A stretch of DNA of 61,605 bases, filler included, from Candidatus Woesearchaeota archaeon (GTDB lineage Archaea; Nanobdellota; Nanobdellia; Woesearchaeales; BM511), in the NCBI GenBank assembly GCA_023266675.1. It is 4 parts of 4 records of this genome, joined end to end, with 100 filler letters (N's around TTAATTAATTAA, not from the genome) between each part and the next. Parts side by side here need not be neighbours in the genome. Positions count along the whole stretch, not along the records: positions 7,142 to 31,171 come from JAHFPP010000011.1; 3 more parts are not named here. One strand, given 5' to 3'. The notes beneath the pieces are model-generated. The model was not told the DNA's origin. It saw nothing but the letters and a program-made list of their open reading frames with translations, and did no database searches. Numbering within the stretch: the first letter of the stretch is position 1; each line of letters opens with the position of its first letter. A program made the position numbers and the translations under genes. Positions 7,142 to 19,455 of this stretch are shown one piece after another.

Positions 7142-7308
7142 TATTCTTCGGATGTTATCCTTTGAGCTTCATCAACTAGTAATCTGTATTCAGGATCGTT
7201 ATTATTAGGGTCGTGTCTGTGTGACACAAAGTTTAGCATCTTTAGTCTTTTAGAAAGGTCTTCCTGTTCTTCAGATGTTCTTTGTATAGGGAGTAGTTTT
7301 TCGCTCAT
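7142..7308 (-). CDS. Hypothetical protein, 3'-partial
   Basis: ATG at 7308 with TATA-like sequence upstream; truncated by the linker. Confidence 0.5.
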
Positions 7309-11983: not shown

Positions 11984-12838
11984 TTACATGATTTTTTGAT
12001 AGTTAGAATCTTCAGCCTTTTGCTTGATGTAATTGAAACTCTGCTTTGCATATATTATTGGGTGCTTTATAGGAACTGTTATTTTTCCTGAGTTCGTCGC
12101 TATCTTCTGCATCAGGTTAGTCTCCTTTCCAACTGTAAAATTTGTCTGTTTTTTTATGCTGTTCAAAAAATCCTCAACAGATGTTGGATATTTTGTGTAC
12201 GTCAATACTTTTCCAAGTTCAAAAAGCCTGTGTCCGTCTGAACCCGCAGTTATTCCTTTGTTTAATGTTCCTGCAAGCTTTACTGCGCTTTGGTTCATAT
12301 TTTTTAAGAGTGAACCATTGATTACTTCAACTGCGTCAAACTTCTTAAGCTCTTCAGGTGTTGCAATTTTATGATGAATCTCGCTGCATACTCCAGTCCA
12401 GCTTATTCCATAAGGGTGCGCTGCAGATAGTACACAGTTGTAATCTTTTGATGCATCCATCAGTTCAACAAATGGTATATTCAAAAAATGGCATCCGCGT
12501 TCCCTGTTAGGTAAAATGTTGTGATTATGAAACTCCTGGAGTTCATTTAGATTGTAAAAATAGTATAATAGGTGTATCCCCTCTTTTGATGTCGCTTCAG
12601 TTCCCGGAATTGTAAATACGTCCTTGTATTTTGAAAGCTCAATAGCACCGCGTATCTCATTATGATCAGTTATTGCAACGCCTATACCCATTTTCTTTGC
12701 TTTTTTTACTATTGTTGCAACTTTTCGTGAACCATCAGAGTATTTTGTGTGGTAATGCATGTCTACACACGTGAAACCTTGTCCTGCAAAATTCATCTGT
12801 TTTGGTTTTTTAAACGTTATTCTCTCATTAATATCCAT
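11984..12838 (-). CDS. PHP-domain metal-dependent phosphoesterase
   Basis: DMHYHTKYSDG, AITDHN, PGTE...GIHLL, AHP and GSDGH motifs. Confidence 0.92.
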   Translation of the reverse strand: MDINERITFKKPKQMNFAGQGFTCVDMHYHTKYSDGSRKVATIVKKAKKMGIGVAITDHNEIRGAIELSKYKDVFTIPGTEATSKEGIHLLYYFYNLNELQEFHNHNILPNRERGCHFLNIPFVELMDASKDYNCVLSAAHPYGISWTGVCSEIHHKIATPEELKKFDAVEVINGSLLKNMNQSAVKLAGTLNKGITAGSDGHRLFELGKVLTYTKYPTSVEDFLNSIKKQTNFTVGKETNLMQKIATNSGKITVPIKHPIIYAKQSFNYIKQKAEDSNYQKIM

Positions 12839-12979
12839 ATACCAATAGTGTTTGTTAAGGGTATATAAGTGTTATCTTTTTGTGAGCTGTAAAGTTAACG
12901 TCACCTAAAAACTGTCTTTTTTAGTGGGTTTGGGTATCTAAGAGAAAGTTTTATATTTAAATGATTGATTTTATACATA

Positions 12980-13729
12980 ATGGCATCTGTAAGTGTATTT
13001 AAGATTAAAGAGAATATAGATAAAATTAGTGTAAGAAAAAATATAGATTTAACAGGAACTACCCCTAAACAAAGTCAATTAGCCGAATTTAATATTATAA
13101 AAAAATTACCTCAACCTCATTCAGAAATTAAATTTATTGAAGAAAAATCAGGATATATAAAATATAAAATTAAGCATGAATCTAATACAATATTTGATGA
13201 GATTAAAGTATATAAATGGGATGTATTTGAGGATACAGGGGCTTATGAATCATCAGAACATATTACGAATAAAGGTTATCAAATAATACGTGAATTTAAC
13301 GTGTTAGTTAATCAAAAAGCTAAATTAGTATATGTTTTCTCAAAAAAAGATGATGCTAAAATTTTTATGATGCGTTTAAAAAATAACTTAGATATAGATT
13401 ACGAACCAGTTGAATTAGATTTATCAAAAATAGATGAAATACCTGAGATAATAGATGAATATGGTGCATGGGTAAATGATTCTGGAAATGTAATGAAACA
13501 TGGACATTTTGGTCATAAAGTAAAGAAATATATGGAAGGAAATGAACATAATGTAACCTCTTATAATGTGGTATATGATTATGGGGATGAAATTAATATT
13601 TATTTAGTAATCTCAAAAGAGGGCAGAATAAGTTCTCAGAGTAAATTTGTAAAAGAAGCAGTTTTACTTAAAATATTTGGTCATTTAAAAGAAAAATTAG
13701 AGATGTTACAACCACCTACAGATGATTAA
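12980..13729 (+). CDS. Hypothetical soluble protein (transposon cargo)
   Basis: 249-aa ORF from MASVSV; TATA-like box upstream; stop overlaps the convergent ORF. Confidence 0.75.
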   Translation: MASVSVFKIKENIDKISVRKNIDLTGTTPKQSQLAEFNIIKKLPQPHSEIKFIEEKSGYIKYKIKHESNTIFDEIKVYKWDVFEDTGAYESSEHITNKGYQIIREFNVLVNQKAKLVYVFSKKDDAKIFMMRLKNNLDIDYEPVELDLSKIDEIPEIIDEYGAWVNDSGNVMKHGHFGHKVKKYMEGNEHNVTSYNVVYDYGDEINIYLVISKEGRISSQSKFVKEAVLLKIFGHLKEKLEMLQPPTDD

Positions 13730-14373
13730 AGTATAGAAGTAAAATCATTTATTACATCAGTAACTTGTTCTAAACTAACATCTTTAAAATTTACTTTGTT
13801 AATATCTACTTTTACACGAGATTTATATTCCTGATTATTATATTCCATCTCATAATTTGTTAATTTGTATCCTTTAGGGGGAATCAATTTAAGATGCTTC
13901 CATAAATAGGGTAAATATAAGTCTAAAGAAAGATTTTCTATAGATTCAATTTTCTTATTTTTATTAAGTTGACCAATTAAAGTTACTATCTTTCTTAAAT
14001 CATCTTTTAAATCTCTTATTCCAGCTCTCTCATTTTCAGTCTCTATAATAAATATCTTTTCAGAATGTTTTTGAATAGTCAAATAAAAATCGTTAGTATT
14101 AATCTCTAAAACGATATTATTCTCTTTTTTTACTTTATCAAGTAATTCATTAGATTTTAATGATTTAACTATCTCTTTTTTAAATTCAGAAAAAGTTAAA
14201 TTTGATGAAACCCAAACAACAAAATTGATTTTTCCCTTTTTATTTATAGCTTTATAAAATGCACGTATCAATCTTTGACCTATAGAAAAATAATTTTCAA
14301 TAATGGCACCGATAATAGCTCCAGCAATAGTTCCAACGATTATTTCAAGGGTTAACTGTAAAAATTGATTCAT
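13726..14373 (-). CDS. Hypothetical protein with N-terminal TM helix (transposon cargo)
   Basis: IIVGTIAGAIIGAII hydrophobic helix; ATGA coupling to the upstream RHH gene. Confidence 0.75.
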   Translation of the reverse strand: MNQFLQLTLEIIVGTIAGAIIGAIIENYFSIGQRLIRAFYKAINKKGKINFVVWVSSNLTFSEFKKEIVKSLKSNELLDKVKKENNIVLEINTNDFYLTIQKHSEKIFIIETENERAGIRDLKDDLRKIVTLIGQLNKNKKIESIENLSLDLYLPYLWKHLKLIPPKGYKLTNYEMEYNNQEYKSRVKVDINKVNFKDVSLEQVTDVINDFTSIL

Positions 14374-14516
14374 TTTTCTACCTCTTTTCTTAAGTTCTCA
14401 AAAATTATATTAAAACAGTATGTTGACTTCTTTACACCTAATTCTTTAGCTTTCTTTTCTATTATATTATTTAATTTTTCCGATACTGATATTTTTATTT
14501 GTTTTTGGTCTGTCAT
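14370..14516 (-). CDS. 48-aa ribbon-helix-helix (CopG-like) regulator
   Basis: Manual translation MTDQKQIKISVSEKLNNIIEKKAKELGVKKSTYCFNIIFENLRKEVEK*. Confidence 0.75.
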   Translation of the reverse strand: MTDQKQIKISVSEKLNNIIEKKAKELGVKKSTYCFNIIFENLRKEVEK

Positions 14517-14545
14517 AGTACTTAATTAAGTACTAAATAAGTACT
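14516..14545. promoter_or_regulatory. Perfect 20-bp palindrome plus extra half-site (probable RHH operator)
   Basis: TAGTACTTAATTAAGTACTA at 14516-14535 and TAAGTACT at 14538-14545, between the RHH start and its TATA box. Confidence 0.65.
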
Positions 14546-14611
14546 CTTATTTATAAATCTTTTCTTTATAATCAAAAGATTTAAATAAAATGTTTTAAAA
14601 TAGGTTATAAA

Positions 14612-14866
14612 ATGGTATCAACATTAGATAAAATTGTAATTGGTATCGCTGTCGTCGGATTTGCATTTCTTATATCATTCTTTGCTAATAATTATACTGG
14701 GGCTGCGATAGGTTTAGTCATGATTGGTGCAGCTATAACTTTAAAGGTCATGGTAGATAATGGAAGACCCTCAAAAGCATTATGGTATATGTGGATTGCA
14801 ATTTTAGTTATTGTATTATTTCTTTTAGGGTTAGGTTCAGTAATACCAAAAATTAAGTTTGGTTAA
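14612..14866 (+). CDS. Small 3-TM membrane protein (transposon cargo)
   Basis: 84 aa, three hydrophobic segments. Confidence 0.7.
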   Translation: MVSTLDKIVIGIAVVGFAFLISFFANNYTGAAIGLVMIGAAITLKVMVDNGRPSKALWYMWIAILVIVLFLLGLGSVIPKIKFG

Positions 14867-15728
14867 ATGTAGCTAATCGTATCATTTCTAACCATTTATT
14901 AACGCCTTGATTGTTTGGTATTCCTGCGAGTTCGCTTGGTAGTTGTCCTGTCGTTGTGTGCTTTTCTATGTAATTATGCTGTAGAACTATTCCAGCCATT
15001 AAGATAGGAGCTGACCATAGAGCTTTTATACCTCTAAAATCATAAACTCTATCTTTAATCTTTGAGAAAACTGTCTCTATTCTTACGTTATGTTTTTTAC
15101 TTTTTCTCACGTTATTTATTATATGTTTTACATTATTATTTTCTTTGTATATTGAGTAAAACACTTTTCTAAAAGCTCTTGGATAAAATTTTGCGGCGTC
15201 AGTTTGAACATATTTTGGTAATACGCTTTTCTTTATCTTATTCATAAAATTAGTAGCATCTTTAACATTTTGACTATTAGAGCTGTATAGCGTAGCGTTT
15301 ATATATCGTGTATCCCAATCAACTGAACACCAAAAGACATCATTTCTTTTTTCACAATCAATTTCTGTTTCGTCAGCATATACCTTTCCAGATAGCTTTG
15401 GACTTAAAGTGTCAACATATCTCTGAACTTTTAAAGTATAACGTCTTACCCAGTCTAGTATTGAAACGTGGCTTATTTTGGTCTCTAAATGTCTTTCTAA
15501 CTGATTTCTCATTTTACGGCTTGAAAGATTTGATAAATATATATCTATTGACATAGTGATTATTTTTTCACTGTTTCTCATTCTGTAAAAACCCTCATCT
15601 TTAGTAAAGTATTTTCCACAATCAAGGCATAGATATTTCTGTATTTTACCTCTTTTTTCTGTTTTTCTGTATCCTTTTTTGATTGTGTTTTCTGATTTAC
15701 AGCATTTGCATTTAATCTTGTCATCCAT
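14853..15728 (-). CDS. DDE transposase, IS6-like, with N-terminal Zn ribbon
   Basis: CKCCKS...CLDCG, HTH, ADETEI, D.DTR, QTDAA.FY and NVRIE motifs; likely leaderless start MDDKIKC. Confidence 0.88.
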   Translation of the reverse strand: MDDKIKCKCCKSENTIKKGYRKTEKRGKIQKYLCLDCGKYFTKDEGFYRMRNSEKIITMSIDIYLSNLSSRKMRNQLERHLETKISHVSILDWVRRYTLKVQRYVDTLSPKLSGKVYADETEIDCEKRNDVFWCSVDWDTRYINATLYSSNSQNVKDATNFMNKIKKSVLPKYVQTDAAKFYPRAFRKVFYSIYKENNNVKHIINNVRKSKKHNVRIETVFSKIKDRVYDFRGIKALWSAPILMAGIVLQHNYIEKHTTTGQLPSELAGIPNNQGVNKWLEMIRLATFNQT

Positions 15729-15732
15729 ACCA

Positions 15733-15836
15733 TTTAGGTATCTAAACATATTTATATACTTTTAGGTATCTAAATATAATAATTATGATATATAGTTTTA
15801 GGTATCGAAAAGCTTATAAAGACTTAGGTATCTAAC
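15733..15836. promoter_or_regulatory. Four TTAGGTATCTAA-like operators flanking two divergent TATA boxes
   Basis: Copies start at 15733, 15761, 15797 and 15823; TTTATATA at 15751 and CTTATAAA at 15813. Confidence 0.75.
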
Positions 15837-15844
15837 TAATTATT

Positions 15845-16006
15845 ATGAGACTATTAAAACAAGTTAGCCGAGCATACAAAGAGAAATCATACCATAAACA
15901 CTGGATAGTAATCCCAAACAACCTTATAAAAGAGCTTAAATGGGATGAGGGAATAGAACTTAAAGCAGAAGTCAAGAATAATAAACTCATAATTGAAAAA
16001 GATTAA
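15845..16006 (+). CDS. 53-aa AbrB/MazE/SpoVT-type DNA-binding protein
   Basis: Manual translation MRLLKQVSRAYKEKSYHKHWIVIPNNLIKELKWDEGIELKAEVKNNKLIIEKD*. Confidence 0.8.
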   Translation: MRLLKQVSRAYKEKSYHKHWIVIPNNLIKELKWDEGIELKAEVKNNKLIIEKD

Positions 16007-16129
16007 TTAGGTTGTATACTTAAAAAAACAAAAGGTTTATATATCTAAATTAACTTCTATGTTTCAAAGAAACATAGAAGTAAATTATTAAATACTAATA
16101 TAATAATCTTTTTGTTAAGAGTTGAGATT

Positions 16130-16237
16130 ATGAGAAAAGAGATTATTAAAAAAGAGGGAATAATTGATTTATCTAAAGAGTTTGAAGAAATGTTTAGTAA
16201 TAACTATAAACTTCTTAAAGAATTATCTAAACATTGA
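16130..16237 (+). CDS. 35-aa peptide, candidate Doc-neutralising antitoxin
   Basis: MRKEIIKKEGIIDLSKEFEEMFSNNYKLLKELSKH*; convergent with and overlapping the Fic/Doc gene. Confidence 0.5.
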   Translation: MRKEIIKKEGIIDLSKEFEEMFSNNYKLLKELSKH

Positions 16238-16715
16238 TTAAGATTTTCTCTAACCATATTTTTATTTCTTTTGTATTGTTTTTATTTCCAATATCTGCCC
16301 ATTTTTTAAATAAAGTTATATGTTTTTCATACTGACTTAGAGGTAACGTTAAATTTATGTTATTTAAAGCTAAAAATAACCATAAAGTTACAAACCCTGT
16401 TCTTTTATTCCCATCAAAAAAAGGATGATTTAATTCTAAAAAACAATTAAATATTAGTGCACCTTTAAAAATTACTGTTTCTTTTTTATTTTTTTTATTA
16501 GGAGTATAATATTTTATTCCTGTAAAAGAGAGTATCGCGTCTGACATAATTTCTTTAGTTAATATGGAATCATTATCTTTTTCAAAAACTTCAACTAAAA
16601 AATCATGTAAATTGATTATTGTTTCTTTTTTTGGATATTTTATTCCTTCAATTTCATCATAATGTATATTAGAGAAATTTTTCTCAATCCATTTTTTTGT
16701 ATGAGTTGCTATCAT
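16227..16715 (-). CDS. Fic/Doc family protein (Doc-like)
   Basis: HPFFDGNKRTG motif. Confidence 0.88.
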   Translation of the reverse strand: MIATHTKKWIEKNFSNIHYDEIEGIKYPKKETIINLHDFLVEVFEKDNDSILTKEIMSDAILSFTGIKYYTPNKKNKKETVIFKGALIFNCFLELNHPFFDGNKRTGFVTLWLFLALNNINLTLPLSQYEKHITLFKKWADIGNKNNTKEIKIWLEKILINV

Positions 16716-16826
16716 AGTTAAAGAAATACGTAATAACTATTTAAAAATGAGTTTTTTAGGTGACGTTAACTTTACAGCTCATCTTTTTGATTAAAGATTG
16801 GTTAGTAGATAAGATGATAAAGAAAA

Positions 16827-17477
16827 TTAGACCTTTATTGCTATTGTTGACGGACTTCGCCTGCCTATTATTGGTCCGTCCTTAACTTCAAACCCTGCGG
16901 CTTTAAGATTGTCGCGAACAACCCTTGCGCATGAGTAAGTTGTCAGTATTGCGCCAGTATTCATTTTGTTATAAATATCTTTTAGGAACTCGTATTCCCA
17001 CATATGAGGCGCTTTTTTTGGCGAGAACGGGTCAAAGAAAACAACGTCTGCATTCTCAGCCACTGTTTTTATTTTTTCTTTTGCGTCACCAAGAAGAATG
17101 TGGATAGTCACATTATTTTCGTTTAGATAATGTGTTTTGACAACTTTTTTTATTAAATCAAAACTCTCAAATTTAGGCTCAACTTCAAGAATCGCATCTA
17201 ATATGGTCTGATCATTCTCAAACCCGTAAACAATTATCTCACAATCTTTGTTCACATGTTTTATCATGTCAATTGCAGCGGCGGAGTTGTATCCAAGACC
17301 AAAACAGACGTCAAATATGACTATTTTATCCTGTTTTTTTGCAAGTTCATCGACTCTTGCTGGCTTTGCGTGTTTTTCAAATGATTCCTCAACAGCGCCT
17401 GAGTGCGTGTGATAGCATTCGCCAACGTCAGGACTTCGGAATGTTACTGAGCCGTCAGCTGTGATTATTCTCTCCAT
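16827..17477 (-). CDS. MnmC/MnmD-like SAM-dependent tRNA methyltransferase
   Basis: TADGS.T..S....E.YH..SGA..ES, DVCFGLGYN, FFDPFSP...P.MW, TYS; likely start MERIIT. Confidence 0.85.
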   Translation of the reverse strand: MERIITADGSVTFRSPDVGECYHTHSGAVEESFEKHAKPARVDELAKKQDKIVIFDVCFGLGYNSAAAIDMIKHVNKDCEIIVYGFENDQTILDAILEVEPKFESFDLIKKVVKTHYLNENNVTIHILLGDAKEKIKTVAENADVVFFDPFSPKKAPHMWEYEFLKDIYNKMNTGAILTTYSCARVVRDNLKAAGFEVKDGPIIGRRSPSTIAIKV

Positions 17478-17612
17478 GATTGTCTGGAAAAAGCCGTTAG
17501 TTAAAAAGCTTACAATTTTGATAGAAATAAGTGTAACCATCATATGATAGTTAAAATAGTTAAATTTATAAATAGATTAAAAATACCACTGTATAGTTAC
17601 ATTATATTTAGA

Positions 17613-17700: not shown

Positions 17701-19455
17701 GTGGTATTAAACAGTTCTGCAATAAAACCAGTTGGAAATTTAGGAAGAGGAAGTGGAGCTAATGATACTTCTGGAAACGGAGAAATTAATAACGAAGAAA
17801 TATTGCGTGATATGGCAGCTTTACCAATGACAATGGCAGAAGCGTCTGTAAGTTTATTGATGGAAAAATATTCTAATTTAAGAGGCACCAAAGTAGAAGA
17901 AGTTCTAAAAAGAGTCGTAAAAAAAATGGCCGGAAACGGCCTAAGTGCAGTGAACAATATTATGTCCTCTGAAAAGACTGCGGCTTATGAAATTTTAACC
18001 GGAATGGGAGATAAAAGAACAGAACTTAAAGAATTAACAGATTTTCTTAGAGAACACGGCATCCAGTATGATGGGATGTCTCTAACAAGAGATGAGACTG
18101 GACTATTTACAATAGGATATACTGGAAAAGATGCAAATATAAGACAAGTAATTGGTGAGGCAAATACTGAGTTTGGAACTATTCATTTAACAAATTCAGC
18201 TCTTGAAACAAGAGTAGGTAATTTACTAGGAGATATACAAACTATTACAGGCGAAAGAAATGGATACAAAACAAGAGCCGAAACCGCAGAAGAAAGAGTA
18301 GAAAGAATAAAAGAAAATTCAAGAAAAGACTCTTTTGAAATGCAAAGAGAATATTTGCGAACTATTTTTGAAGCAAGAAATGAGAGAATAGAATTAGAAT
18401 CATTACTTAGTGAAGCAAGAAAAACCAGTTATAAACCTGGTGAAGATGGCTTTTCAATTGTAGCAGAAGACGGACAAAGATATGTCCCTGCAAGAATGTT
18501 GACACAGACAAGAGGAGTCGTATCCACTGGTTCAGAAACACTTCCAGTACTTATGCAAATTAGCGTAAGAGAAAATGCTGTTTCATTTGCAAGAGACATG
18601 CTTACCTCTGAATTAGAATTAAGAGTATCAGATCTGGGTTTTGAAGTTTCAGAATTAAATGAACAATTAAGATTAGCTAAAGAAGCGTATGAACATTTAA
18701 GTATTGAAAAAGGAGGAGTTGAAGCTCAAAAAGAAACATTAACTGCCCATAATCAAACTCTTTCCGCAAGAGTTGGTGAAGTAGAAAATTATAATTTGAA
18801 TTTAGCAAGCATGAATGATGCATTAACAAGAAACAATCAAGGATACCAGAGATTATTAACTGGTAAACAAGAACAGTTAGAAAAAAGAGAAGAAGCTTTA
18901 AGATATAAAGGAAATATGTTAAGTCTTGCTTTAAAGCACAAAAGAAGATTATCTGGAATTGCAAGAGTTTGCTATGACAAATGGAAAGGAAATGAAACAA
19001 CGCTTGCTCAGACTCAATCTCATCTTGCTTTAGCTCAGGAAAGTTATGATAATTTAGATAGGGCATATAACCAGATGTTAATTACACACCAACAAGCTGA
19101 GAGGTATGTTGGAGAATTAAGGATTTCAGTAGATGAAAAAGGTCAACAGATACATGTTTTAGAAGGAGATAAATCTTCAGTTAAGGTAATTAAAGGAGTA
19201 CAGAGTAGAATAATTGAAGGATTACGTGAAACAATAAGATTAAGAGATGAGGAGCTTTCAGGTGAAAAACAAGGAAGGCAAAATGACAGATTAGTATACT
19301 TAAACAAGTTGCAGGTTATTGGAGAAAGATTAGCAGGACTAGGGTATATTGCTGAGGATGCCCTTCAATATATAACACAAGTTGATACAAGAGTTGACGG
19401 TTTGGATAAATTATTGACTGATGGTTCTCAAAATGGTACTGCAACTAGAAGATAA
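17701..19455 (+). CDS. Long coiled-coil hypothetical protein
   Basis: 584-aa ORF with E/L/R heptad character; GAGG RBS before the GTG. Confidence 0.75.
   Translation: MVLNSSAIKPVGNLGRGSGANDTSGNGEINNEEILRDMAALPMTMAEASVSLLMEKYSNLRGTKVEEVLKRVVKKMAGNGLSAVNNIMSSEKTAAYEILTGMGDKRTELKELTDFLREHGIQYDGMSLTRDETGLFTIGYTGKDANIRQVIGEANTEFGTIHLTNSALETRVGNLLGDIQTITGERNGYKTRAETAEERVERIKENSRKDSFEMQREYLRTIFEARNERIELESLLSEARKTSYKPGEDGFSIVAEDGQRYVPARMLTQTRGVVSTGSETLPVLMQISVRENAVSFARDMLTSELELRVSDLGFEVSELNEQLRLAKEAYEHLSIEKGGVEAQKETLTAHNQTLSARVGEVENYNLNLASMNDALTRNNQGYQRLLTGKQEQLEKREEALRYKGNMLSLALKHKRRLSGIARVCYDKWKGNETTLAQTQSHLALAQESYDNLDRAYNQMLITHQQAERYVGELRISVDEKGQQIHVLEGDKSSVKVIKGVQSRIIEGLRETIRLRDEELSGEKQGRQNDRLVYLNKLQVIGERLAGLGYIAEDALQYITQVDTRVDGLDKLLTDGSQNGTATRR

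Follow-up and report, generated by a model that had tools for sequence, protein, structure and literature searches.

Positions 12883–16781 of the 61,605-nt stretch analysed here (the window, meaning that whole stretch), from the genome of a Candidatus Woesearchaeota archaeon (assembly GCA_023266675.1), in all likelihood form one intact unit transposon of 3,899 bp, a 'transporter insertion sequence' (transporter IS) that is one of a large family found across DPANN archaea and akin to the archaeal IS6 branch. DPANN archaea have tiny genomes and, to our knowledge, few mobile elements have been described in them. The element lies on a single contig (C40, 24,030 bp) that supplies positions 7142–31171 of the window and no others; the remainder consists of other contigs or N, and context across those borders is not real. 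The outer limits of the element are set by four features.

12875–12882, no strand: left copy of the 8-bp target-site duplication TCTTTTTG, exact
12883–12911, plus strand: terminal inverted repeat, the right end in transposase orientation, 29/29 complementary to 16753–16781; family consensus TGrGCTGTwAAGT...
16753–16781, minus strand: terminal inverted repeat, the left end in transposase orientation
16782–16789, no strand: right copy of the 8-bp target-site duplication TCTTTTTG, exact

The two 29-nt repeats (12883–12911 and 16753–16781) are complementary at all 29 positions and form a pair that is unique in the genome, and TCTTTTTG adjoins both of them. The perfect repeats 3.9 kb apart and the exact 8-bp duplication from which an earlier, sequence-only reading started are thereby confirmed. 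The 23-nt core of the repeat is found at exactly two sites in the window when up to three mismatches are allowed, and it is confined to the same two sites across the whole genome (1.22 Mb, 83 contigs). A chance origin of the terminal repeats was considered and rejected, the number of sites expected from 100 shuffles being 0. Between the ends there is one transposase open reading frame (ORF), a single copy genome-wide, and seven further ORFs of 41–254 aa that lie on both sides of it. The sequence-only reading counted about seven passengers; the number of ORFs agrees, but one of them, a 53-aa AbrB-like ORF, is part of the core of the family and not a passenger. The element has a G+C content of 0.259, lower than that of its two flanks (0.316 and 0.337). 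Both junctions are bridged by contigs of the probable source run in Logan's assembly, and the depth of these contigs is equal inside the element and in its flanks (6.5–8), which shows that the structure is not an artefact of one assembly, though the underlying reads are identical. No tRNA genes or Rfam families were found in 12000–17600, and a sigma-70 promoter scan, a model irrelevant for an archaeon, fell below shuffle expectation.

The central position of the transposase and a size atypical for IS6 could also be explained by a simple IS nested in a larger, unrelated mobile element or island, to which the 29-bp repeats would then belong. This is barely credible, given that no end-like sequence lies inside the element: the best internal match to the ends is 14/20 in the wrong orientation, which is the chance level, and the internal repeats near the transposase that the sequence-only reading had named as the observation to worry about are absent. 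Moreover, the transposase clade keeps the same outer ends in 62/62 relatives, whatever the cargo.

The affiliation of the unit transposon can be examined through its transposase.

14853–15728, minus strand: transposase of 291 aa, in which a CxxC...CxxC zinc finger precedes a DDE domain (D119, D177, E218, K225, R227), identified by Pfam, NCBIfam and alignment

The frame is open from 14853 to 15749 (minus strand), and the true start is most likely 15728 (MDDKIKCK) rather than 15749, because M8 corresponds to the first residue in the relatives and the ATG further upstream is overlapped by an operator box. The protein scores 42.2 bits against the Pfam family DDE_Tnp_IS240 (PF13610), above the cut-off of 27, and it matches the NCBIfam IS6 model (NF033587) over the whole model length with 80.3 bits (E 1.5e-22). 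An alignment of 20 members shows little or no variation at C7, C10, C34, C37, D119, D177 and E218 and in the motif RIETVFxKIKDR; K225, R227, W238 and W279 are invariant, the residue four positions on from the tryptophans being I or L and not F. Passages of Harmer and Hall 2019 (PMC6807381) give E--F---K-R after the catalytic glutamate as the signature of archaeal 'IS6' transposases, and the window transposase carries it as RIETVFSKIKDR. A word-indexed protein search returned 690 relatives at E <= 1e-5, the nearest 72% identical, under public names that vary among 'IS1/IS6', 'IS6', 'IS1' and 'DDE-type' transposase. The 15 listed of 103 matches on bacterial plasmids are all annotated as IS6 family, at 24–27% identity.

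Comparison with IS6 shows both kinship and departure. According to the same passages of PMC6807381, IS6 consensus ends are 14 bp long and start with GG (GGTTCTG...), with a G at position 7, while archaeal ends are longer (at least 18 bp) and often lack the initial GG. Passages of Varani et al. 2021 (PMC7986276) put the size of IS6 elements at about 0.7–1.8 kb with the transposase as sole gene, and name ISDsp3 as the lone member with one passenger gene, other IS6 cargo moving via pseudo-compound transposons. With the archaeal branch as these passages present it (clades a–d in PMC6807381, clade A in PMC7986276), the present family shares the IS240-type DDE domain, the K/R after the catalytic glutamate, the E--F---K-R signature, 8-bp duplications, ends longer than 14 bp in which a GG start is dispensable and the G at position 7 is kept, and the approximately 25% identity to bacterial IS6 transposases that is given for archaeal versus bacterial members. 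Unlike IS6 as so described, it measures 1.6–6.8 kb and has cargo inside its own ends in every delimited member; it also adds an AbrB-like gene with an operator array and a zinc finger at the transposase N-terminus, inserts close to TATA boxes, and has DPANN hosts. Three observations on the window element itself tell against an IS6 assignment: the NCBIfam IS6 cut-off of 125 is missed; the ends start with TGAGCTG instead of GG and share with IS6 ends only G2, G7 and the CTGT core; and the element is four to five times the typical IS6 size, with eight ORFs. In its apparent mode of operation the element is IS6-like; formally, it falls outside IS6 in size, number of genes, GG ends and NCBIfam score, and the contested archaeal IS6-like group is the best fit.

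The N-terminal CxxC...CxxC finger raises the question of whether the element belongs instead to the IS1595 or IS1 zinc-finger DDE families. The IS1595 family includes transporter ISs, some IS1595/IS1-type elements are known as transporter ISs with 8-bp duplications, some public records call the relatives 'IS1 family' or 'IS1/IS6 family', and the transposase gives 23.2 bits with the IS1/IS1595 zinc domain and 36.8 bits with the IS1 model, both below their cut-offs (28 and 100, respectively). Such a placement is nevertheless improbable, because the full-length IS6 match is far higher, the Pfam IS240 cut-off is exceeded, the E--F---K-R signature is present, the listed plasmid matches are uniformly annotated IS6, and a sister DPANN clade (locus L063) bears classical GGTTCTGT ends. 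Transporter ISs in the ISfinder sense, as in the IS1595 family or ISDsp3 of IS6, likewise combine one transposase with passenger genes within a single pair of inverted ends; in the present clade, unlike these, cargo is the rule and is modular, and there is a putative repressor circuit of the element's own.

The IS6-related unit transposon of the window is one of many. A scan of GTDB, with one genome per prokaryote species, yielded 10 loci with transposases 60–70% identical, whose titles are Woesearchaeota, Nanoarchaeota, Nanoarchaeia, Aenigmatarchaeota and, in one case, Hadarchaeota. In 401 sampled genomes of the window's phylum, a transposase match at E <= 1e-20 was present in 70, with identity above 50% in about two dozen, and 17 of these loci were analysed. 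Both ends were found in 23 of the 27 genome loci, the other four being cut by contig ends. An exact 8-bp duplication flanks 23 of the 24 genome-derived elements, that of the window among them, and a 9-bp repeat flanks the remaining one (L009). Metagenomes yielded 453 relatives, of which the best 80 loci were analysed; 44 of these have the end pair, the other 36 being mostly on short contigs, and the duplication is exact in 39 of the 44 (two of the 39 loci represent one insertion). The 62 unique complete elements range from 1,619 to 6,788 bp, with a median of 2,980 bp. Scanning IMG/VR viral contigs with the transposase alignment gave no relative. The proposal of the sequence-only reading for one locus, namely that an IS6-like unit transposon with atypical TGAGC ends carries cargo and acts as a vehicle of accessory genes in DPANN, is thus supported across the 62 elements; promoter-proximal targeting and the RdgC/RexA-fold cargo module were not part of that reading.

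The ends of the family are about 24 bp long and of the TGRGCTGT type, with the consensus TGrGCTGTwAAGT followed by about 11 lineage-specific nucleotides. The outer 13 nt are family-wide and the inner 8 nt covary between both ends of each element, as is expected if the binding site lies inside and cleavage takes place at the tip; the inner part would accordingly be read by the transposase, and the tip would be the cleavage site. Among ten more distant transposase loci (25–38% identity), none showed an end pair with duplication within 1.5 kb. When nine of them were inspected with larger flanks, L063 gave the sole convincing pair and L069 a possible one. The L063 element (L063:5620-7990, 2.4 kb) represents a DPANN clade with transposases about 32% identical; its ends are of the classical IS26-like GGTTCTGT form and its duplication measures 8 bp, which ties the TGAGCTGT tip to the IS26-type tip. 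Given L063, extra DNA within the ends may be widespread in other clades as well. Several members can also coexist in one genome: G184, a one-contig genome of 0.83 Mb, contains L051, L052 and L053, which carry different cargo and have transposases 57–60% identical to that of the window, and additionally holds three more distant IS6-like copies.

Two facts have to be set against this picture of a family delimited by ends and duplication. The exact duplication is missing in 5 of the 44 metagenomic end pairs. Two of these five, L098:566-3903 and L122:2015-6147, have perfect 24/24 ends and no duplication (2/8 and 3/8 matches), which is compatible with inter-copy recombination, with intramolecular replicative events as in IS26, or with misassembly. 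In addition, the 38 metagenomic elements were picked for having ends and duplication, so that the presence of both in this set follows from the selection itself.

No such family appears in the literature searched on IS6 and archaeal ISs, as far as its available passages go, ISfinder entries lying outside the comparison. In the 2026 survey of archaeal ISs (PMC13343696), the terms 'passenger' and 'Nanoarchaeota' occur zero times, and 12 of its 16 matching passages contain no mention of cargo-carrying IS6-like elements. An already catalogued element of the same organization, which the sequence-only reading had held up as a challenge to its proposal, is likewise absent from those parts of the IS6 reviews and the archaeal survey. 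Set against these sources, the large DPANN-type family is apparently undescribed.

The target sites have a common architecture, which is seen in the window at the left flank of the element.

12861–12868, minus strand: TATA box GTATATAA of a PHP-family gene (ATG at 12838, minus strand), 6 nt from the duplication and 23–30 nt upstream of the ATG

The window element sits directly upstream of the core promoter of the PHP gene, and the duplication restores the adjoining 8 bp. The arrangement recurs in 46 of the 62 sites, where a TATA-like hexamer starts 4–8 nt beyond the duplication (on the side of the transposase 3' end in 32, on the other side in 17, on both sides in 3), while control windows of the same width in the 88-nt context give a mean of 2.6 and a maximum of 6. 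The oriented site profile reads nnAAAwmG (the duplication), wAAnn, TTTATAWA. When the sites were rebuilt, 18 of the first 24 had no spanning ORF of at least 70 aa, and insertions are mostly intergenic. The rule has its exceptions, as 16 of the 62 sites lack a TATA-like hexamer at the fixed offset. In three loci (L145:4630-7900, L147:7650-7700 and L048:8130-8180), a second element end adjoins the 8-bp duplication of a complete element, in tandem. The order in L145 is element end, CAAATTAA, element, CAAATTAA, 5 nt, TTTAAATA, which indicates that the promoter-proximal target was used twice; such tandems would be no surprise if the target copy next to the promoter remained available.

A bolder interpretation is that the choice of target depends on the archaeal transcription machinery and not solely on the sequence or shape of the DNA. 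The transposase, by itself or in complex with the AbrB-like protein, would recognize TATA-binding protein and transcription factor B (TFB) bound at the TFB recognition element (BRE) and TATA box, and would integrate exactly 5–6 bp upstream of the TATA box, which would make the promoter a reusable safe harbour. This is a doubtful though conceivable proposition. If true, it would provide a prokaryotic counterpart of promoter-tethered integration such as that of Ty3.

Only two element genes recur in an all-against-all comparison of the family, the transposase gene and the AbrB-like gene. The latter and the regulatory features of the window element are as follows.

12930–12941, no strand: operator-like box TTGGGTATCTAA standing alone; the TATA-like stretch before the RdgC-like gene (12950–12957) lies 9 nt downstream of it
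15734–15835, no strand: divergent promoter/operator region with four 12-bp TTAGGTATCTAA-like boxes (15734–45, 15762–73, 15798–809, 15824–35)
15751–58 (transposase gene) and 15814–21 (AbrB-like gene), no strand: TATA boxes in the spacer, each bracketed by two boxes
15845–16006, plus strand: 53-aa probable AbrB/SpoVT/MazE-type DNA-binding protein, a core gene, characterized by Pfam, PDB profiles and a family hidden Markov model (HMM)
16048–16086, no strand: 18-nt inverted repeat, 94% complementary, with a 3-nt loop, between the AbrB-like gene and a 35-aa ORF and just after a TATA-like stretch

The AbrB-like protein of the window scores 19.6 bits against the Pfam family MazE_antitoxin (PF04014), whose cut-off is 24.7; its orthologues score 23–36 bits, and those 49–64% identical exceed the cut-off at 26–36. 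Its matches to PDB profiles are AbrB, MazE and SpoVT, at weak E-values of 0.06–0.6. By HMM, the gene is found in 51 of the 62 elements and is mostly divergent from the transposase gene, across a spacer of about 100 bp with a fixed order of box, TATA and box toward each gene (boxes at about -107, -81, -45 and -17 from the transposase start). The box arms, TTAG/TTCG...CTAA, are kept and the layout is constant, while the cores differ by lineage (GATACC, GGTACC, GGTATC, GGTTCC, GGGTAC, GATATC). With a strict pattern, there are 10.0 boxes per kb in the promoter window of the transposase gene versus 0.10 per kb in the rest of the elements. Two or more strict boxes are present in 33/51 AbrB-positive versus 0/11 AbrB-negative elements, and a looser pattern gives 39/51 versus 1/11. 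In L044, L047 and L008, where cargo splits the transposase gene from the AbrB-like gene, each promoter retains its box pair, and a sub-lineage with a co-directional, more divergent AbrB-like gene has its own boxes around both TATA boxes.

Because boxes and gene co-occur, covary and share position, the AbrB-like protein is proposed as the repressor of its own gene and of the transposase gene. Two considerations temper this proposal: the protein is linked to the boxes by co-occurrence only, and the gene is missing in 11 of the 62 elements, which means that a repressor is not obligatory. The claim of the sequence-only reading that the element carries its own regulators is therefore right as to their presence, but the AbrB-like gene is conserved core equipped with operator boxes and not cargo. 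To judge by its position, the solitary box at 12930–12941 may place the RdgC-like gene under control of the AbrB-like protein as well. The inverted repeat at 16048–16086 could be an operator or an RNA hairpin.

The cargo of the window element lies on both sides of the transposase gene, and three of its ORFs are listed here.

14612–14866, plus strand: 84-aa hydrophobic ORF, probably a small membrane protein, with weak family matches only
16130–16237, plus strand: ORF of 35 aa (35–41 aa), convergent with the doc-like gene and overlapping its 3' end; candidate antitoxin
16227–16715, minus strand: 162-aa Doc/Fic-family toxin-like protein with the motif HPFFDGNKR, identified by TIGR01550, Pfam Fic and PHROG

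The Doc-like protein scores 41.5 bits against TIGR01550 DOC_P1 (cut-off 38.65) and 37 bits against Pfam Fic (cut-off 24), thus exceeding both cut-offs, and its PHROG assignment is a Doc-like toxin. It resembles Doc of the P1 Doc/Phd pair in its domain, which is above the NCBIfam cut-off, and in the HxFxDGNKR motif; it differs in having about 29 extra N-terminal residues and no upstream Phd-like gene. At the locus no antitoxin gene was found upstream of it, and the convergent 35-aa ORF is the sole candidate nearby. Of the addiction module suggested by the sequence-only reading, the toxin is thus well founded, while no antitoxin was identified at the locus. The lack of a Phd-like gene, together with the fact that MazE antitoxins are the best Pfam match of the AbrB-like protein, invites the thought that the AbrB-like protein serves as antitoxin to Doc, or to other toxins in the cargo, and that this pair is an addiction module and not a transposase regulator. 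This is very unlikely: a protein of 53 aa leaves no room for a toxin-binding tail, the position of the gene and its boxes track the transposase promoter, and, because Doc/Fic proteins occur in 2 of the 62 elements against 51 for the AbrB-like gene, the latter is not a Doc-specific antitoxin. Applied to the other cargo of the window, PADLOC gave nothing beyond weak Fic-related matches for Doc itself, and PHROGs gave only Doc-like, RelE-like and Arc-like hints.

Across the family, all 62 elements have at least one ORF of at least 60 aa besides the transposase and AbrB-like genes, and 56 have at least two. A caution attaches to these counts, as the cargo ORFs were called mechanically and most are without an assigned family. 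Where families could be assigned, by Pfam, restriction-modification (R-M) or DNA methylase genes stand out, being present in 14 of the 62 elements (L004, L006, L046, L056, L057, L075, L085, L109, L110, L112, L115, L121, L135 and L148). L148 also has a ThsB-type (Thoeris) TIR domain with Vsr; other cargo includes ParE/RelE (L008), GNAT with an AAA_14 ATPase (L054), NYN with Trypco2 (L125), and the families LD-carboxypeptidase, HhH-GPD, TrmB and VRR-NUC. One element of 6 kb (L142:5700-11659) contains a complete five-gene operon for a Pst phosphate ABC transporter (PstS, two permeases, ATPase) together with an AbrB-PhoU fusion; this cargo is metabolic and not defensive.

The remaining cargo of the window element consists of three genes that recur together.

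12980–13729, plus strand: 249-aa cargo protein outside any Pfam family, its RdgC/RexA fold predicted from an AlphaFold2 (AF2) model
13726–14373, minus strand: 215-aa cargo protein, whose model shows an alpha/beta domain preceded by a long hydrophobic helix at the N-terminus; operon partner of the ribbon-helix-helix gene
14370–14516, minus strand: 48-aa ribbon-helix-helix-like (NikA/Arc-like) regulator, suggested by Pfam; first gene of the operon, before the 215-aa protein

The AF2 model of the 249-aa protein has a mean pLDDT (predicted local distance difference test) of 77. In the VIA comparison, it matches E. coli RdgC (2owl) with Z 9.6 over 207 aligned residues at a root-mean-square deviation of 8.2, the next match having Z 6.3; other fold neighbours are IML3, CENP-N, lambda RexA (Z 5.6) and 3oh8. 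Passages of the RexA structure paper (PMC11077077) name RdgC, IML3, CENP-N/CHL4 and 3oh8 as the fold relatives of RexA, the same set as the neighbours of the 249-aa model. A profile search of 1.84 billion representatives found only 80 relatives of this protein, and a single-protein metagenome scan with it found nothing. For the 215-aa protein, a word-indexed search returned no homologue beyond itself, and the fold has no clear match, the best being Z 8.7 to S-adenosylmethionine decarboxylase (AdoMetDC) with many rows tied; in the Atlas it meets only hypothetical clusters and TBP-like folds at TM 0.4–0.5. The ribbon-helix-helix protein gives 22 bits against the Pfam NikA-like family, below the cut-off of 27, while its orthologue in L044 reaches 27.2 bits. 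The trio, with the 249-aa gene convergent to the other two, is found in 4 of the 62 elements: the window, L050, L044 and L056. That of L050 is 43% identical, the figure that also applies to its orthologue of the 215-aa protein, with an AbrB-like gene standing in for the ribbon-helix-helix gene. In L044 and L056, the sizes and order are the same and the ribbon-helix-helix protein is 69% identical to that of the window, while BLAST picks up the large proteins barely or not at all.

The trio can be compared with lambda RexA/RexB and E. coli RdgC, as passages of PMC11077077 describe them. It has in common with them an RdgC-fold model with the same structural neighbours, a partner with a hydrophobic N-terminal helix and a small repressor gene. 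In contrast to RexA and RexB, the window genes are convergent, and their products show no sequence similarity to these. RexB is described there as a 16-kDa inner-membrane protein of four helices, whereas the window partner has 215 aa with one long predicted helix and an alpha/beta domain. The 249-aa model agrees with the RexA/RdgC fold at the level of fold only, and the partner is not a RexB-like four-helix protein. The favoured guess, though somewhat less likely than not, is that the trio may be a Rex-like exclusion module. The main rival view would make it an accessory factor for recombination or DNA handling, for example one that modulates host RadA during cointegrate resolution, with no part in defence. 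The best structural match, RdgC, is a modulator of RecA according to passages of PMC11077077, and IS6-type cointegrates need host recombination according to those of PMC7986276; still, this view is unlikely, for a trio present in 4 of the 62 elements must be dispensable for movement, the rapid divergence of its two large proteins beside a conserved ribbon-helix-helix protein is usual for conflict systems, and the other cargo is mostly defence or toxins.

Taken together, the parts of the element suggest how it might work. The transposase would bind the ends through its N-terminal region of zinc finger and helix-turn-helix and would cut with an 8-bp stagger. Movement, if it resembles that of IS26, may proceed by copy-in cointegrates resolved by host recombination, cut-and-paste being possible too. 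A dimer of the AbrB-like protein would bind the boxes, repress its own gene and the transposase gene, and keep transposition low. Landing upstream of the BRE and TATA box would leave the core promoter of the host intact, because the duplication restores the upstream 8 bp, and insertion in a 1.2-Mb genome would accordingly be cheap. Addictive or defensive cargo, Doc here and R-M, ParE or Thoeris TIR elsewhere, would then stabilize the element in its host.

As to age, the recent insertion assumed by the sequence-only reading is plausible from the perfect ends, the perfect duplication and eight intact frames, but it is undated, and the source run has no empty-site contig. On the negative side, neither the genome nor the source-run contigs contain a transposition intermediate, an empty site or a second copy, although contigs are no proof that the empty site is absent. 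Among sequencing runs, one DNA run, probably the source, and no RNA run was listed as containing the element, and no RNA-run contig fell on it, which does not bear on its expression. In a same-family genome (G343), one contig bears both the MnmC2-like and the PHP gene, the two that flank the element in the window, separated by a 183-aa membrane ORF and without the element; this arrangement supports insertion but falls short of an exact empty site. The MnmC2-like gene of the window is closely followed by a charged-residue-rich, apparently coiled-coil ORF of 584 aa (17701–19455).

For DPANN archaea, the family seems to be a main vehicle for R-M systems, toxins and other accessory genes. It combines features not described for IS6-type elements: cargo inside the element's own ends throughout a clade, a built-in putative AbrB-type repressor with an operator array over both promoters, and an insertion point placed precisely, a few bases before archaeal TATA boxes. 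The RdgC/RexA-fold module that recurs among the cargo is a candidate for a new archaeal defence system. If integration is indeed guided by the promoter machinery, self-repressing elements would stack in tandem at promoters and shuttle defence systems, including the Rex-like RdgC-fold module, among DPANN.

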